A stretch of 63,557 bases of DNA, counting the filler, from Pirum gemmata (taxonomy: Eukaryota), in NCBI GenBank assembly GCA_002812295.1. It is 22 parts of 22 records of this genome, joined end to end, with 100 filler letters (N's around TTAATTAATTAA, not from the genome) between each part and the next. Parts side by side here need not be neighbours in the genome. Positions count along the whole stretch, not along the records: positions 25,583 to 28,203 come from PDIN01005424.1; 21 more parts are not named here. One strand, given 5' to 3'. Numbering within the stretch: position 1 is the stretch's first letter; each line of letters begins with the position of its first letter. Made by a program: the position numbers and the translations under genes. The notes beneath the pieces are model-generated. The model saw nothing but the letters and a program-made list of their open reading frames with translations. It was not told the origin of the DNA and did no database searches. Shown in pieces: positions 23,037-43,645 of the stretch.

Positions 23037-24551
23037 ATGAAAATAAATACCTTTATACTTGTTCTGGATTTTTTTGCAGTATTTGTGCTAGCAGATCATT
23101 TTTCCACAGGTACAGGCCAAGGAGATGCACCCACACAACAACCAACTAGAAAAATCAATGATGAACGTGTATTTGTACCTTTACCAAGTCTAAGAAAAAT
23201 ACTGAACAACATACCAAAACCATCATCACCAATTCACCCCACATCTGATGAACATCCAGACACCCATTACAAACCACCAACAAGAACTATCATCAATGCG
23301 AAAAATGACACAGAGACAGCAAATGATAGAAAACCTAAAACAAATGACACAGAAAAAGAAGATTTTTATTACAGCTTTGAACCCGCAGAGCATTGCTCAG
23401 AACATCAGTTGAAGCAATGTCCTCACTACGATACTAACCCGTGTGGTCAAGGTGAAATATTAAGAACCAGGCCTGGCAAATGTTGCCCAGAGTGTGTTTT
23501 AGAACATTGCACTGAAATGATTTTCCGTCAGTGTAAAGTTTTTGACAAAACAAAAAAAAACGTGTGTCCGGCTGGTCATACATTAAAAAAACTAGAAGGT
23601 AAGTGTTGCGAAGAATGTGTTAAAGAAAGGCATTGTGAGAAATTCACTTGCCCAGAAATAAATATAGAAAACGAACACGAACTCGAAAATTCTTTCTGTG
23701 GCTCGGATGGTTTAGTTTATGGCAAACGTTGTGCTTTGGACTTGTATGCTTGTACCAATTTTGGGCACGATCAAAATGGATTAAAATTCAAGGAGAAACA
23801 CATTGATAGCTTAAGCTGCGCTGACAATTTTGGACCTGAATTTGACCGAGGTAAACATTCTTAATTAATACTATTCTTTTTTCCATTTTTATACATAATA
23901 TATATTCAATTCGATTATATTTGTAAAAGTAAGAATGTTATTATTATCATTGTTCCTGTATAGTTATGTTCCAATTTTAATTATTATTAAATTTATATTA
24001 TTATTTTTTCTCCTTTAAATTTAGCTGTAAGCAAGCCCAAATGTACTCCTTGTACCCAACATAACGATCGCAATATACCGGTTTGTGGATTTGACGACCA
24101 AACATATTCTAATATGTGTGAACTGGTATACGCAAATTGCATAGCAGGGATCTATTTTATTAATGTAAAGCATACCGGCGCCTGTGCTAAACCTACCTTT
24201 ACCGAAGAAGAAATAGAAGATTTAGTGAATTTAGCCAATAACGATCAACCTAATGTTGAAGAAAGCTCTAATGTAAACATCGCTAGCACTAGCAGGACCA
24301 GTTTAAGCACTAGCAGTTTAAGTACTGGTGCTATAGTTGGAATTGTGATGGGATCTCTTGCAGTTTTGCTGATTTTAGTTGGTCTTGTAACTTTTATATT
24401 AATGAAAAATAACAAAAATACTGCCCATGATAAAGATGAGAATAATGTAGAAGCGCAAGAAAACTCGTTAACAAACTCTGATGAACCTGATGCTGTATTA
24501 AAATCCAATACAATAACGAGAGGAGGAGAAACATACCGCCAATTTACCTAA
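23037..24551 (+). CDS. Type I membrane protein (~446 aa) with Cys-rich repeats and two Kazal-type domains; exons 23037-23850 and 24025-24551
   Basis: Signal peptide; two C..(P/E)GKCC(P/E)EC repeats; Kazal motifs FCGSDGLVYGKRCAL...C and PVCGFDDQTYSNMCEL...C...GAC; phase-1 GT-AG intron joins the two ORF-track ORFs; TM helix GAIVGIVMGSLAVLLILVGLVTFILM; tail YRQF. Confidence 0.88.
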
Positions 24552-25059: not shown

Positions 25060-25356
25060 TTAATCATATCGGCCTCTGCATGTGCTAGTTGGAGAGTGTC
25101 CGTAGGGCTTACAGATATTTGGAGATGAACACTGATTGTCGTTGGCACAATTTGATTTTGGTATCCTTTCACAACTCCAGCCAAATTCATTACACCACCA
25201 ATACATATCGTATTGTTGATTAAGTTCACCAGCGATCCAGTATGGTTCTCCGCAGTCACTATTCCTTTTGCAAGAAAAGCCACGGGAAGACGCTTTTAGA
25301 AATAATACAAATGTGCAAACTAAGCACAGTAAAAACTTGGATATTAATGGCAACAT
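25060..25356 (-). CDS. Small secreted cysteine-rich protein (98 aa)
   Basis: Hydrophobic N-terminal signal; mature part has 8 Cys in two C-x5-C..C..C modules (CKRNSDC, CANDNQC); GC content above the flanks. Confidence 0.75.
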   Translation of the reverse strand: MLPLISKFLLCLVCTFVLFLKASSRGFSCKRNSDCGEPYWIAGELNQQYDMYWWCNEFGWSCERIPKSNCANDNQCSSPNICKPYGHSPTSTCRGRYD

Positions 25357-25750
25357 TATGATTTAAATATATATATATATATGTTTATGATATAATTTTT
25401 AAAATATATAATGTACACGTGCACATGTATAATATATATGTCAAAGAAAGTCTTAGGTATAGTTTATATTATTATTATTATTNNNNNNNNNNNNNNNNNN
25501 NNNNNNNNNNNNNNNNNNNNNNNNNNTTAATTAATTAANNNNNNNNNNNNNNNNNNNNNNNNNNNNNNNNNNNNNNNNNNNNAAAAAAAATTGATTAAAA
25601 TTAAATTAAAAATTAAATAAAATTTTGAAATAAATATATAAAGAAAAAATAATAATAAATAGTAATAATAGTTAAAAATAATTAATAATAATAATTAATA
25701 ATTAATAATAATTAGTAATTTATAATTAATATATAATAATAATAGCAATA

Positions 25751-27421
25751 ATGAAAGTAACAGCAGTAACAGCAGTTATCACTACATTAGTGTTAAGTAA
25801 CATAGTAGATAGCAAACCATTATTTACCTTTGACATCAATGAATTTTTAAACAAAGATAAACCTAAAACTACACCAAAGTATTACAAAACCGACAAATAC
25901 ACCTTGGAAGACAAATTCAAAATAGTTTCAGTAACAGAAAAATACATCAAAGAAAATAATAAAATAGGCTACGGAGGTACAGCTATTAATAATATTTTAC
26001 CAAAAGAAGATCGTTTTTACAATTATAATGAAGAAATGCCTGATTATGATTTCTTTTCCTCTAATCCAAAACAAGAAGCAATGAATTTAGTCAATCTTTA
26101 TCATAGTATAGGTTACAACACAGCTTTTACTCATACTAGCACTTTTCATGAATCTACTTTCAAAGTGTTTGTTGGCAGTTTGGGTGTAGCTGATATTAGT
26201 TATGTTCCACCTGGTTTTATTAAAATTTTAGAAGAAGCACCAGAGGAAGATGAAAATGGATTTAAGTTTTCATCTACTAATTATTTAAGATTGGCTTTGT
26301 ATAAAGAATTAAGTAGACCTCAAGGGAATACAAAGCGTTGGGAAAAGTTGTTCCATCGTCTTAAAGTACTTAATCGTAATCATGGTTTATATTTCAACAA
26401 CGACAAAACAATAGACGGTAATGCATTATGTGCTGCATTTGAACAAGAGCAAAAACAAGAACAAGAACAGTTACCTCAAGCACATTTTAAGGTAATGGAA
26501 ATTACTAAACAAGTTCTTGTAGAAGAAGAAGGATTGTTTTTCAGTAAAGTTGCAAGAAATAACAAGAACGCTAGTTTCGATTACTCTATTTCTAATGATG
26601 TTTTTGAAGTAGCTTTACTATATCATGTACAAGCATTTGAAAAATTGCAAGCACAATTAATGAAAATTGACGGAGTTAAAAGTGTCACAATGTTTCTGAA
26701 AAACGACGCAGAAAACATGGAAGAAATCCCCGCTATGAATGAAATACAAGTAACCTATAACGATAACACCATTCGAACTATTGCGTACTTTTACGAACCA
26801 ATAGGCTGCCTTTCGTACGAAACCCAACACTCCACCGACATGGGTAAACCTGTTAGAATAGCAACAGTAAATACAATGCTAAACAATTATTTTGCTAGCA
26901 CGTTTATCGAAGATATACATTTTAATGAAAAACAAAGAAAGCGAGTGTTCTGTAATTCACTGCCTTTGATGTCAATACAAGAATCAGAGCAAAGTAGAAT
27001 AGAAGAATTAACTATTGGGGACAATTTACAATGTTCTGGTTTCGAAGGCGAGTCTTTTTCATTTTTGATGGCGAAAAAATCCGCTTATTATCAAAAGTTG
27101 AAAGCAGTTGAAAGAAAAAAACTTTTGAAAGCCGGCACCATGAACGAGGTTCCAACTGACTTAGTACTATTAAAAACAAAAACATCAGAATTGGAGGTTC
27201 AGGATTTTGGTGATTTTGATAGTGACATGTTCTTTTGTTATTCTCCAAAACATGAACCTTTGGAATATTGTAAGCAAAAGTTAGATTATAGTTTTATTCG
27301 CATAAAAAACGCGAGTTCTATTGTAGTTACTGCTGTTTTTATTTCTTTTCTTTTTGCTTTATTTACTCAGTTTATGTTTAGAAAAAATTTGACACCCATC
27401 TTCCCAGCTACAGAAAAATAA
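25751..27421 (+). CDS. NCLDV (giant virus)-type poly(A) polymerase catalytic subunit homolog with predicted signal peptide and C-terminal TM helix
   Basis: Motifs YGGTAINNILP..DRFY....E.PDYDFFS, TFKVFV....VADISY, NYLRLALYKELSRPQGN..RWEK...RL..LN and second-domain C.SY...RIATV.TML match Mimiviridae-like vPAP as I know the family; intronless, 556 aa. Confidence 0.9.
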   Translation: MKVTAVTAVITTLVLSNIVDSKPLFTFDINEFLNKDKPKTTPKYYKTDKYTLEDKFKIVSVTEKYIKENNKIGYGGTAINNILPKEDRFYNYNEEMPDYDFFSSNPKQEAMNLVNLYHSIGYNTAFTHTSTFHESTFKVFVGSLGVADISYVPPGFIKILEEAPEEDENGFKFSSTNYLRLALYKELSRPQGNTKRWEKLFHRLKVLNRNHGLYFNNDKTIDGNALCAAFEQEQKQEQEQLPQAHFKVMEITKQVLVEEEGLFFSKVARNNKNASFDYSISNDVFEVALLYHVQAFEKLQAQLMKIDGVKSVTMFLKNDAENMEEIPAMNEIQVTYNDNTIRTIAYFYEPIGCLSYETQHSTDMGKPVRIATVNTMLNNYFASTFIEDIHFNEKQRKRVFCNSLPLMSIQESEQSRIEELTIGDNLQCSGFEGESFSFLMAKKSAYYQKLKAVERKKLLKAGTMNEVPTDLVLLKTKTSELEVQDFGDFDSDMFFCYSPKHEPLEYCKQKLDYSFIRIKNASSIVVTAVFISFLFALFTQFMFRKNLTPIFPATEK

Positions 27422-28565
27422 TCAATGCTGACTTTAAAATTTTGAAAATAATAGTAATAATAAACAATAAGTAAAATATATTTAACAATAGAGAAAATGG
27501 TGATAATTATTCACATCAGTTTTTTACTATTTTTACATTGTAACAATGAATATAATATATATATTATATATTAATAACAAAGTTATAACAATAACAGTAT
27601 CAATAATATTATTATCAATAACAATTAATAACAATATAATTATATATAATTAATATATTATAACAATAACAATAACAATAACTATAACAATAACTATAAC
27701 TATAACTATAACAAGAACAAGTACTTTGTAATTTAAAAACTTTGTAAAGTATTATACTATATATAGTTTACATAATCAAATTCAAACATCAACTTATAAT
27801 TATACCAATATACAAAGAGTATGCAAAGTACAAAGTACTATGACCACAATTCAAATAATTCAAAATAATACATCTTTAATATTTAAATTGGTAGGTTTTA
27901 ATATATATGATAAGGTTATAATATATGATAATATGGTCTTATAGTAGTTTTTTAATGTTTAAATTAATTAAAATATAGCCATTTTTTTATTATTTCGGCT
28001 GAATTTCGGCTGAATAAAAAAATATAAATAAAAATGACAGAATAAATGAATGATCCCGTTCTTCCTACTTTTAGTGGGTTTATTATTATTATTATTATTA
28101 TTCTAAGCAATTTGTGGTGAATTTCCCTTTACATATAATAATAATAATAATAATCAGTTGCACATGTAATAATTAATAATAATAATAAATATTAATTAAT
28201 AATNNNNNNNNNNNNNNNNNNNNNNNNNNNNNNNNNNNNNNNNNNNNTTAATTAATTAANNNNNNNNNNNNNNNNNNNNNNNNNNNNNNNNNNNNNNNNN
28301 NNNTTTTTTAAAATTAAAAAATTGTAAATTTCTAAAATTTTAGGTCTGGCAATAATGTAAATTCTTATTTGCAAAAAAATTATTTAATGATAAAGGGCTC
28401 GGTATTATTATTATTCTATCGAATACTATTGAAATTAAAAAAGGCTTAATATTATTATTATTATTATCAATGAACGCGTCACAAAAGCGTAATTAATATC
28501 ACCCAGACCAGTTACACATTAGTAATTAGACGGTTTACTAATTTGTTCATTTTAAAAAATGGTAT

Positions 28566-31232: not shown

Positions 31233-32834
31233 ATGTCGGGTATTGATTTACTTGCTTCTGGTGACTCTATCTCAATCAATGCTTCTGAACAAATATTAAA
31301 AGAGTATAAAAACCAATTTTCCAACATTGAACAACTGTGGGATTCTATATATAAAGATTATTCAACTCGAATTAAAACCAGGGTTAAAGAAACTGAAAGG
31401 TTAAATGATATAATTAAGGAATATAATATCCTCAAGCAAAATGTTTACGAAATATTTAATGAACAGTTTCGCAACGGTGCCACCAACTATACAACTGCAA
31501 ACCTCGACGTCAACTTTATTCAAGTCAACGGTAAAATTGTCAATGCTGTAGAGTTGTGCGTTAAAGATGAAAACATAACATTTCTCAGGAAATTATTGAA
31601 AAATGGAGCTAGTCCCGACTATAAAGTTACCATTAACAAAGGTGATGATGATAAGGCTATCGAAAGTTCTCTCCATCAAGCCGTAAAATTGGGAAACGTA
31701 GCTATTACCAGATCATTGATTAAATATGGTGCTGATTTTTCTACATATGACAATGCCGGTAATACACCTTTACATGTAGCTATTGCTTTAGAAAATATAA
31801 TGGTAGTAAACACTTTGATTAAAAATATTGCGTTTATTAATTTAGTCAATCAAGAGGGATTTAGTCCTTTGGCTTTTGCAGAAAATTTAAATAAAGGTTC
31901 CAAAGTACAGCAAGGTATAGTTGATGCTTTACAAAGTTTAGGGGCCAAATCAATAAAACCAGAAGCATGTTCTGAATGTACTTCTTTGAAAAAATCTGTA
32001 AAAATAGGACATGCCCGTTGTCTAAAAATATTGTGTAATTCTGAAACAGATGTTAACGAAATACTTGTAAACGATAAAAAAACCTTGTTGTCTTTTGCGA
32101 GTGAGAAAGGGCAAGTAGATTGTGTTAAAGAACTTATTTTAGCAAATGCTGATGTAAATGATTATGGTAAAAGTAGGTTTGGGCCTCTTTATTTAGCAGC
32201 TGAAAAAGGCCATGTTGATTGTTTAAACGAATTGATCAAAGCTAAAGCGGATGTAAATAAAGTATTTGGAATCAAAGAATGGACACCATTAACTGTTGCA
32301 GCTCAATTTGGTAATTTTGAATGTTTAAATGAATTAATCAATGCTAAAGCAGATATTAATAAATGTTCGATCGGTGGTTCCACTCCTCTTCTTATATCAG
32401 CCGTATACGGTAAATTAGATTGCTTAAAGAAATTAATTTCCGTAGGGGCAGATTTAAATAAAGGCAACGACGATGGAGGCACACCATTGTTTTGGGCAGC
32501 TCACTACGGACATATGTTATGTTTAAATGAATTAATTAAAGCTCAGGCAGATCTAGACAAAGTTGATTTTCGAGGTAGAACTCCTCTTTGTCAAGCTGCA
32601 GAAAAAGGGAACCTTGCATGTGTGAAAAACTTAATTACAGCTGGTGCTGATCATTCGATAAAAGATAATCAAGGGAATACAGCCTTGATGCTTGCTGGTT
32701 TAAGAAATCAAAAGGAGTGTTTAGATTTTTTAAAAAATGTACCAATGAATAACAAAAGAAATCATTCTGATGATGATGATGAAGCAAACAATTCTGGCCC
32801 AGTGAGAGTCAAGAAAAAAAAAGGGGGGGGATAG
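31233..32834 (+). CDS. Ankyrin-repeat protein (533 aa) with N-terminal helical/coiled-coil region and C-terminal basic NLS-like tail
   Basis: About 11 ankyrin repeats (G.TPL..AA..G...C...LI.A.AD.N); tail RVKKKK; intronless. Confidence 0.93.
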   Translation: MSGIDLLASGDSISINASEQILKEYKNQFSNIEQLWDSIYKDYSTRIKTRVKETERLNDIIKEYNILKQNVYEIFNEQFRNGATNYTTANLDVNFIQVNGKIVNAVELCVKDENITFLRKLLKNGASPDYKVTINKGDDDKAIESSLHQAVKLGNVAITRSLIKYGADFSTYDNAGNTPLHVAIALENIMVVNTLIKNIAFINLVNQEGFSPLAFAENLNKGSKVQQGIVDALQSLGAKSIKPEACSECTSLKKSVKIGHARCLKILCNSETDVNEILVNDKKTLLSFASEKGQVDCVKELILANADVNDYGKSRFGPLYLAAEKGHVDCLNELIKAKADVNKVFGIKEWTPLTVAAQFGNFECLNELINAKADINKCSIGGSTPLLISAVYGKLDCLKKLISVGADLNKGNDDGGTPLFWAAHYGHMLCLNELIKAQADLDKVDFRGRTPLCQAAEKGNLACVKNLITAGADHSIKDNQGNTALMLAGLRNQKECLDFLKNVPMNNKRNHSDDDDEANNSGPVRVKKKKGGG

Positions 32835-41334: not shown

Positions 41335-41377
41335 GGGTATTTTGTATTCTAAAGATCCATTTATGTATGTTTGTTAC

Positions 41378-41409
<32 letters not shown>

Positions 41410-43645
41410 GGGTTAGGGTTAGGGTTAGGTTCTAAACTTATAAGTGATAAATTTAATGATCGTACAATGTGGATTAAGCTTGCTAATGGCAATGGTGGTA
41501 AAAATGTATGTTTGTGCTCTGTGTGTATGGATGTTGCAAATAGTAGTGCTATAGTTCGAGATAATACACTTTCTGAGATTAGTAAAATGAAATTTAAACA
41601 AACACTGGAGTTTTTGGGTGAGATTTGGATCTTGGGTGATTTTAATGCTAGAGTTGGAATTGGTGAAACTTACACTGGTGATGTTATTAGTGAATTTGGT
41701 GAATCTACTATTAATTCAAATGGTTATAAACTTATTGGTTGGTTAACTCAAAACAGTTTGAAAATTTAAAACGGTATAACAAAAAATAACAAATTTCAAG
41801 AGAACATCTTGTATACCTTTTGTTCCCAGACTGGTAGTAGTATATTATAATTGATTATGGTTTAAACCTTAATTAATTATGAACTCATTAGTTGGAGATG
41901 AAGTTGTGACGTTATCGAAAGTAATTATAAGATAGTTTATGCTCCCATTAAAATCGCTTTTAAATATAAAAGGGTTCCTTGTAAACTTATTCGAAAATGG
42001 AATATTAAGGTTGATAATCCTGAAATTATTGATAAGAGTACAAAAGGATTTAGATTCACGTTTTTGTCAAATGGATAGCTGTAAATTTGTCATTGGTGAT
42101 GTATTATATATTGTGAGTGGTTGAAACAGTTCCATAATTTTGATAATACGGTGCCAGAAGTAGATAATGATGATATGTATCGTGATGAGAATAATGTTTG
42201 TTTTAATGATTGGTTGTTAGAGTTTAACGATATATGTAATGATGTGGTTGGAAAAACTGGGATAAAATGTTTTGGTTTTCATCGTAAACATTCTTCATAA
42301 GTTAAAGAACTTGACTAGTAGAAGGAATAAATTTTAAAAAGGGGCCTTGGTTAGAAACAATGAGTCGGATTGGCATACAAATTGAATGTCAAGATTAAAC
42401 AACAAAGTTATAAAGATAATCAAAATTCGTATCAAGAATACTTGGGCCAAAAAGGTTTTATACTTTAATTAAATTGTTATTATAACTAATTGTCGTAATA
42501 ATGATGCTGATTTGGGTGTGAGAATATCTAGTGGTGAAATTGTTAATGATAAAAAGACGAAGAAAAAACCTTGAAGAGATCATTATGCTAAATTAAGTAA
42601 TGAAAATAATGACGATAGCTTTTGTTCTGAGTTTAAGAATGAGTTTGAAAATATTCTGTGCAGGCACGATATACTTAGTGGGGTTAACGTTGTTGATGTT
42701 GTTTTTACTATAGAGGAAGTAAATGCATTTCTAATTTAAAAGTCATAAAGCTGGTGGTGCTGATCGATGAGTTGACAAATGATTTGCTTAAACTGTATAA
42801 TACTGTAAATGGTGAAATACTGTTTGGAAAAGTTATCAATTGCTTTTGGGTTAATGAACATCCTTAGTGATGAGTTAAAAATTGGTAGAATACTTAATAT
42901 TTTAAATATCGTGATAAATTTGATTGTAATAATTTTAGGGGTATAACTTTACTTATGTAGAAATTATTGAGTTGTTTAAATGAAAAGCAATTAACCAAAT
43001 TTCTGGATACTTACTATTAACAGTGAACAAGGGGGATTTAGTAGTGGCAAAGGCTGTGTGGATTCACTTGTTTGTTTTAAATAAGATTAGTGAGAACAAT
43101 TTAGCTAATGGTATTCCTACTTATTTAGCTTTTATTGACGTGAAAAAAGCCTTTGATAGAGTGCGGGGAGAAGGTTTATTATGGGTTAAACTATTTGAAT
43201 ACGGTATTAAAGGCAGAATATGGTGTGGTGTGTTATTAGGCAGATGTATAAAAATAGTCATAGTACAGTTTTAGTTGATGGTGAAGACTGTAATCTGTTT
43301 GATATAATAATTGGTGTGAGGCAGGGTGGATGTCTTATCTCCTACTTTATTTAAATTTTTTATTAATAGTTTAATTGATGATATCAATAGTTTAAACTTA
43401 GATTTATCTGAGGATGAATTATGTTCTGTTATTCGATGTTTGTTATACGTGGATGATATAGCCTTAGTTGCTGTTAATAATAGTGATTTGGATAAACTCA
43501 TTAATTGTTTAATTTTATTTTGTAAAAAATAGAGACTTGAAATTAATTTCAAAAAGAGTGGTATTATGATAGTTGTTCAAAAAGATGGGGTTAGAAATGA
43601 TTTAATTCAGCAATATACTGACAATTTTCCGGAAAATAATCTGCC
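41025..43645 (+). pseudogene. Degenerate LINE (non-LTR retrotransposon) ORF2: APE endonuclease plus RT
   Basis: ILGDFNARVG and INSNG..L (APE); NNFRGITL, AFIDVKKAFDRV, GVRQG..LSPTLF..FIN, LLYVDDIAL (RT); many stops and frameshifts. Confidence 0.92.

Follow-up and report, generated by a model that had tools for sequence, protein, structure and literature searches.

Poly(A) polymerase (vPAP) genes of the Mimiviridae lie in gene-dense genomes, near an RNase III gene. The closest known enzymes to the protein considered here are Mg561 and R341: in their structural description (PMC4402537), a helix, D1, is said to swap between monomers, the enzymes deprived of D1 are monomeric and inactive in poly(A) synthesis, and the basic D4 region is proposed to bind RNA.

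OAS1 p46 is reportedly a membrane-associated nucleotidyltransferase (NTase) of the cytosolic side, and the fukutin/LicD/MNN4 enzymes are located in the Golgi and N-terminally anchored. In the latter, the NTase fold is described as serving glycosylation-type modification (PMC2794190), while the TENT5 poly(A) polymerases are presented as membrane-associated NTases on the cytosolic side (PMC9668313). Moreover, the ALPH phosphatases are reported to be an RNA-acting family found mostly outside the cytoplasm and still accepting RNA in vitro (PMC8220851).

Giant-virus genes found in protist genomes are mostly silent passengers, real domestication being rare and hard to show (PMC11244446, PMC12344493); the domestication of giant-virus genes is called hard to assess in the former, and sequence-only screens are said to overestimate function in the latter. 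The present case comes from Pirum gemmata, described as an ichthyosporean (PMC11286789): a viral information-processing enzyme appears to have been retained in two diverged eukaryotic proteins, one of them encoded by a lone gene. The reading preferred here, with a probability of about 0.5, is that the gene was domesticated and encodes a type I membrane nucleotidyltransferase whose active site lies in the lumen or outside the cell; its acceptor would not be mRNA and would most likely be a glycan or glycoprotein.

The reading frame and its scaffold

The window, i.e. the whole stretch of 63,557 nucleotides that was analysed, is made of 22 short scaffolds (about 2.6 kb) strung together with spacers, and is therefore without a physically linked gene neighbour for the reading frame, which sits alone on a scaffold of 2,621 nt (25583-28203), with 168 nt on its 5' side and 782 nt on its 3' side. 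Translation of 25751-27421 (+) gives the intact, stop-free frame of 556 amino acids announced in the initial annotation, and the same protein is also present in EukProt. The description of the gene as intronless and the putative cleavage site S21|K22 are readings of this frame from its sequence.

Several other features were observed in the window. A two-exon gene at 23037-24551 (+), taken as host control, has a signal-like start, cysteine-rich repeats, presumably Kazal-like, and a C-terminal hydrophobic helix; its intron, near 23851-24026, has a T-rich acceptor. A small cysteine-rich ORF of about 97 aa with a signal-like start is found at 25063-25356 (-), and an uninterrupted ankyrin-repeat ORF of 533 aa stands alone on its scaffold at 31233-32834 (+). 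The fragments at 41353-41766 and 42984-43271 (+) resemble the endonuclease and reverse transcriptase of a non-LTR retrotransposon, and arrays of CCCTAA and variant telomere-like hexamers occur at assembly-gap edges (10680, 50164, 58289 and 59148).

Family membership and catalytic site

The protein belongs to the PF19244 domain family: its sole Pfam match covers residues 62-192 (E 3.8e-27, 95.5 bits against a curated cut-off of 30.2), and PF19244 stands alone at E up to 0.1, no LicD-type Pfam domain being present. In the homologue search, 7,999 best candidates were scored and 3,530 matches obtained, the best 120 of which were examined. Within these 120, the best relative after the query is a second Pirum gemmata protein, EukProt EP00122_Pirum_gemmata_P021697 (hereafter P0002; 36% identity, 287 bits), followed by metagenomic vPAPs with 30-34% identity, about 75% of the length and at most 199 bits. 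No paper on P0002 (EP00122_P021697) was found.

A single-sequence search of solved structures found nothing; the profile search succeeded, a profile of 18 sequences matching the Megavirus and Mimivirus vPAP chains (E 5e-29 and 9e-29). An AlphaFold model built from 115 sequences (mean pLDDT 78.5) folds well over residues 51-460, with pLDDT below 50 at residues 1-46, 270-276, 462-488, 513-522 and 544-556. Its best Foldseek matches are 4WSE and 4P37 (E 5e-19 to 3e-18, TM about 0.52), then vaccinia VP55, and an earlier model from 18 sequences gave the same best structural matches. Furthermore, the Atlas neighbours of the protein are PF19244 clusters, 96-100% viral. The viral poly(A) polymerase ancestry put forward in the initial annotation is thus supported by PF19244 and by the outcome of the checks it had suggested, profile search and structure prediction against the Mimivirus and Megavirus enzymes, in both of which the best matches are vPAPs.

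The catalytic nucleotidyltransferase domain D2 (about residues 52-215; 25904-26395 (+)), delimited by Pfam, alignment and model, contains G75-G76-T77-A78, D98, D100 and D148, as well as R196, K199 and R203, the aspartate triad being invariant in 132 of 132 diverse relatives. It thereby carries the hG[G/S]x(n)Dh[D/E]h signature of the family and the third acidic residue. With the L085 protein used as Mg561 (16 of 16 cited residue numbers agree), Mg561 D94/E96/D143 align with D98/D100/D148, R189/K192/R196 with R196/K199/R203, and the D3-D4 cysteine pair C350/C426 with C353/C428; all of them are also kept in P0002. Sixty-four columns are conserved in at least 80% of the 132 relatives each, and 54 of these 64 are kept in the ORF protein and 55 in P0002 (other relatives: median 60, minimum 50); with so many kept at about 30% identity, the active site is therefore regarded as being under purifying selection.

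The degenerate second nucleotidyltransferase-like domain D3, with C353, occupies about residues 243-400 (26477-26950 (+)) according to alignment and model, and Foldseek and alignment agree on the tandem of catalytic D2 and degenerate D3 folds with the D3-D4 cysteine pair. NTase motifs had been claimed over both subdomains: the catalytic GG/D/D/D set is kept, but the GG and DFD motifs that viral relatives carry in the second subdomain are absent from the ORF protein in the alignment.

Lost features of the viral enzyme

At residues 22-51 (25814-25903 (+)), the position of the D1 dimerisation helix in viral relatives, the D1 motif is not recognisable: in a sequence-level test the ungapped profile score is -14.5, whereas 80 relatives have a median of 28.7, six of them scoring lower still, and shuffled sequences have a mean of -19.4 and a 95th percentile of -9.0. 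The helix following the D1 region is still detectable.

In the D4-like region (about residues 401-510; 26951-27280 (+), from the alignment), C428 is kept and the basic patch is replaced by acidic residues. The segment C401-C428 has a net charge of -4, compared with a median of +3 in relatives, none of 132 being at -3 or below, and 0 in P0002; from C401 to the end the net charge is -1 against a median of +19, only four of the 132 relatives having 0 or less, and +10 in P0002. The whole ORF protein is net -8, as few as 6 of the 132 relatives being negative, and P0002 is net +11 before its C-terminal helix. Since P0002 is still basic, it shares the loss of RNA-binding charge only in part. Moreover, the hydrophobic helix 520-543 departs from a soluble protein. 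As D1, the basic D4 and solubility are all wanting, the ORF protein should not be classed as a functional viral poly(A) polymerase.

A predicted membrane anchor common to two Pirum gemmata proteins

As the initial annotation had noted, the C-terminus carries a hydrophobic helix followed by RK. The uncharged stretch N520-F543 (27308-27379 (+)), a predicted transmembrane helix on the basis of hydropathy and model, has a 19-residue hydropathy of 2.26 (chance 0.06%) and replaces the Lys-rich viral tail directly after the conserved F-x-x-Y-x-P motif; the stop-transfer-like pair R544-K545 and 11 more residues complete the chain (residues 544-556; 27380-27418 (+)). P0002 ends likewise, with a hydrophobic helix (19-residue hydropathy 2.57), RK and 14 more residues, basic residues being more numerous after the helix than before it, so that a single C-terminal helix followed by basic residues is present in both proteins.

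The other 118 of the best 120 matches have a C-terminal hydropathy of at most 0.53 in the last 70 residues, and such an anchor is found in none of 255 other full-length homologues (these 118 plus 137 further 50%-cluster representatives); two of the 255 exceed 1.6 in the last 90 residues, and are, by eye, shortened proteins with an inner helix in the scored window. In IMG/VR, 80 loci were considered, a motif picking the vPAP ORF in 49 of them (31 unscored), of which 45 were complete: none of these 45 has the anchor, the maximum C-terminal hydropathy being -0.25. The claim of a membrane anchor foreign to viral relatives is thereby supported.

Hydrophobic ends were also seen in two fragments. P0369 (272 aa) terminates in a hydrophobic run, and P0141, a metagenomic vPAP fragment of 276 aa, has an N-terminal hydrophobic helix (hydropathy 3.2) instead of the usual start; lying outside the clade of the ORF protein and P0002, it is possibly an independent membrane-anchored form or a frameshift.

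The two Pirum gemmata proteins have other characters in common. The C496/C507 pair and a nearby NAS sequon occur in both, the pair being present in these two alone among the alignment rows displayed. All six cysteines are common to them and four also exist in the soluble viral enzymes; these four being ancestral, only C496/C507 count as luminal support, and weakly. The hairpin after DYD is altered in both proteins, with His in place of a conserved Lys, and in a shorter-protein search it was found altered in this way in none of the 120 listed of 213 matches. A search with the C-terminal region recovered the query alone, and the motifs peculiar to the pair had 0 matches in IMG/VR and JGI metagenomes. 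Finally, a HMMER search over 1.84 billion representatives gave 1,511 matches, and among the best 150 of them only the ORF protein and P0002 score above 207 bits. Sources were checked for 9 of these 150 and one other protein, all being metagenome or run assemblies; with few sources checked, other eukaryotic captures may occur lower in the list.

The initial annotation had also offered a GPI anchor. In a GPI signal the hydrophobic stretch ends the chain, and no charged tail comes after it. Here the helix is followed by RK and 11 more residues, and in P0002 by RK and 14; with a charged tail in both proteins, GPI anchoring is unlikely, and this candidate was rejected.

N-terminus and topology

The hydrophobic N-terminus described initially was recovered as a 17-residue uncharged run: residues 1-21 (25751-25813 (+)) contain a single Lys, the 17 uncharged residues and, at -3/-1, small residues, with a best 11-residue hydropathy of 2.38. 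Such a run would arise by chance in 0.1% of cases given the protein's own composition and in 0.6% given random open DNA of the ORF base make-up, and it is, from hydropathy and these chance tests, a plausible signal peptide. The stretch ends where the viral relatives begin in the alignment, and its h-region is weaker than those of two host signal-like starts in the window (2.85 and 3.05). Among the 255 other homologues, N-terminal hydropathy reaches 2.0 or more in two, apparently with over-long starts.

The 168 nt upstream of the ORF are without ATG, and the next Met, M96, comes only after the GG motif; of the 13 candidate splice acceptors near the start, not one exceeds 50% pyrimidines, compared with the T-rich acceptor of the host intron in the window. 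With no other ATG and no host-like acceptor, the hydrophobic start is probably translated; an upstream exon may lie past the scaffold end. A 9-nt tandem repeat at 25756-25773, preceded by AAT repeats, encodes part of the signal-like region, which suggests that this region arose from host low-complexity DNA.

The search for orthologs with the same topology, proposed at the outset, gave a divided result: P0002 has the anchor, but its N-terminus is missing from the record, which starts a few residues before the GG motif and lacks about 65 first residues together with the first helix of the catalytic domain. Starting at the catalytic motif, this record is probably incomplete and cannot confirm the signal peptide, the signal-like start being visible in the ORF protein only. 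N-glycosylation sequons number 2 against 4.4 expected, and 6 against 5.5 in P0002; the counts are neutral in both proteins, and sequon enrichment was rejected as support for a luminal domain. With P0002 lacking its N-terminus and sequon counts neutral, the luminal topology depends on a single putative signal peptide. Of the type I or GPI-anchored luminal enzyme foreseen initially, the C-terminal anchor has thus stood, in two proteins, and the GPI option has not.

Genomic setting and phylogeny

The 3' flank (27422-28203) is AT-rich (18% G+C) and non-coding, with ATAACA / ATAACT / AAT/TTA microsatellites and without any ORF of at least 60 aa over its 782 nt; in all 41 viral loci whose flank is long enough, coding sequence takes up at least 75% of this stretch. 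Tandem repeats of 3-6-mers occupy 82 nt/kb of the flanks; the 22 scaffolds of the window have 10-173, and not one of 80 viral loci exceeds 9.3. Within the limits of a 2.6-kb scaffold, the host-like setting and the microsatellites resembling those of host scaffolds, both claimed in the initial annotation, are therefore borne out; domestication is supported as well, and strengthened by P0002 with the same anchor. GC3 is 0.25 in the ORF and 0.24-0.28 in two window genes; codon G+C was rejected as a discriminator between host and virus, since viral loci are also AT-rich.

A tree of 74 rows (every second representative, seven earlier proteins and seven Mimiviridae-like outgroups) places the ORF protein and P0002 in one clade with support 100, whose stem measures 1.75 changes per column and which falls within a group of 56 rows with support 97. 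In an AU test on 33 rows, a position of the pair beside the Mimiviridae-like outgroup was not rejected, being 6.6 log units better (p 0.68), and the nesting of the pair inside one viral clade was not upheld. The phylogeny against NCLDV vPAPs thus unites the pair and does not fix its placement among viral sequences; with the donor placement unsettled by the AU test, the virus-to-host direction rests on the distribution of the family, not on the tree. Since the pair stands as a single clade on a long branch, the anchor appears to be ancient and to have been selected.

Proposed mechanism and alternative explanations

In the preferred reading, a vPAP gene would have been captured, probably once, in an ancestor common to the ORF and P0002. 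The signal peptide would take the chain into the ER, with a cut near S21, and the C-terminal helix would stop transfer, leaving RK on the cytosolic side and the nucleotidyltransferase domain facing the secretory lumen or the cell exterior. There, AMP would be moved from ATP to an acceptor other than mRNA by a non-processive monomer that lacks the D1 swap helix and the basic surface of D4 and tail. The most likely acceptor, by analogy with the fukutin/LicD/MNN4-type NTase-fold enzymes that modify glycans, may be a hydroxyl on a glycan or glycoprotein that is secreted, as into a cell wall or surface coat, followed by short oligoadenylates or extracellular RNA ends. A wider proposal, that in unicellular animal relatives a vPAP became an active cell-surface or luminal enzyme adenylating glycans or proteins, or making extracytoplasmic oligoadenylate signals, is tentative and given somewhat less than even chances; if true, either by glycan or protein adenylation or by the oligoadenylate reading, a viral core gene would have given rise to a new secretory-pathway modification.

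The main rival is a domesticated enzyme that is tail-anchored and faces the cytosol, A- or U-tailing RNA at the membrane, the N-terminal stretch being no working signal; its targets might be mRNAs bound at the ER, by analogy with TENT5, or, in a defence role, viral RNA. Of the two hydrophobic ends, the C-terminal one alone is seen in both proteins, P0002 stays basic, and ER-associated cytoplasmic poly(A) polymerases are described (PMC9668313); in addition, ATP and RNA are both in the cytosol, so that the ancestral chemistry would need no change. This explanation is nevertheless held to be unlikely, given an uncharged N-terminal run of 17 residues that is improbable by chance (0.1-0.6%) and has no counterpart in the viral start, and given that D1, on which poly(A) synthesis by Mg561/R341 depends, is not recognisable. 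The loss of D1, the weakened basic surface of the ORF protein and the stem of 1.75 changes per column would also suit a protein of the lumen or cell surface with the fold retained and a nucleotide or metal bound, as a receptor, decoy or hydrolase, but with no transferase activity; all catalytic residues are kept in both proteins while most other positions have changed, which makes this reading improbable.

The host-like origin of the gene itself may be questioned, as a membrane-anchored enzyme could belong to a giant-virus lineage not yet sampled, present as an endogenous fragment or a co-cultured virus. The reading frame has no intron, no host gene is linked to it on the 2.6-kb scaffold, the AU test leaves the placement among viral sequences unfixed, and the metagenomic fragment P0141 has its N-terminal hydrophobic helix. 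Against this, the 782 nt on the 3' side are non-coding (at least 75% coding in 41/41 viral loci), the microsatellite load is host-like, the motifs specific to the pair are unmatched in IMG/VR and JGI metagenomes, and in a published ViralRecall screen (PMC11244446) neither Pirum gemmata nor other ichthyosporeans yielded a reliable giant-virus region; a low probability is accordingly given to a viral gene. Lower still is that of an assembly or frame artefact producing hydrophobic ends on a decaying viral relic: the assembly is indeed one of short, microsatellite-rich scaffolds, but the anchor is common to P0002, the frame is open throughout and residues 51-460 model well. 

Significance

A new anchor shared by two proteins whose catalytic residues are intact is the mark of selection for a new function. 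Should the active site lie in the lumen, a so far unknown ATP-dependent modification would take place in the secretory pathway or cell wall; if it is cytosolic, the protein would be a poly(A) polymerase carrying a membrane helix of its own. No eukaryotic or membrane-anchored homologue of the PF19244 type was found in the literature searched, judged mostly by titles and the starts of abstracts, and a viral poly(A) polymerase homologue with a membrane anchor common to two eukaryotic proteins is apparently undescribed; the supplementary tables of virus-eukaryote transfer surveys (e.g. Irwin et al. 2022) may include the gene.

Comparison with known systems

Mg561 (PDB 4P37), R341 (PDB 4WSE) and PF19244 in general resemble the ORF protein in fold, D2/D3 tandem and acidic triad, the two viral enzymes also sharing with it the R/K/R residues of helix 7 and the D3-D4 cysteine pair. 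In contrast to them, the ORF protein has a signal-like start and a C-terminal membrane helix, is without a recognisable D1 helix, has its basic D4 and tail replaced, and is encoded in host-like surroundings, on a 2.6-kb scaffold that carries no RNase III gene beside it. The metagenomic vPAPs (P0003, L001) are the nearest viral-type sequences among the best 120 of 3,530 matches and have the same GG-DYD spacing of 21 residues; they differ in their polar, mostly Lys-rich tails and in keeping the ELxILR motif of D1. P0002, sister at 100, is like the ORF protein in its helix plus RK, six cysteines and altered hairpin, and unlike it in being more basic and in a record without the first 65 residues or so.

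Outside the family, the fukutin/LicD/MNN4 enzymes serve only as a model of how the ORF protein may work, since they belong to a different family and, unlike what is proposed here, use NDP-linked donors. ALPH (eukaryotic ApaH-like phosphatases) is a precedent only, with unrelated fold and chemistry and an origin that is bacterial-type, not viral. Finally, TENT5 and OAS1 p46, members of cellular families, are the model for the tail-anchored, cytosol-facing alternative: they are held at membranes by partners or prenylation, whereas the ORF protein would be held there by its own predicted helix.
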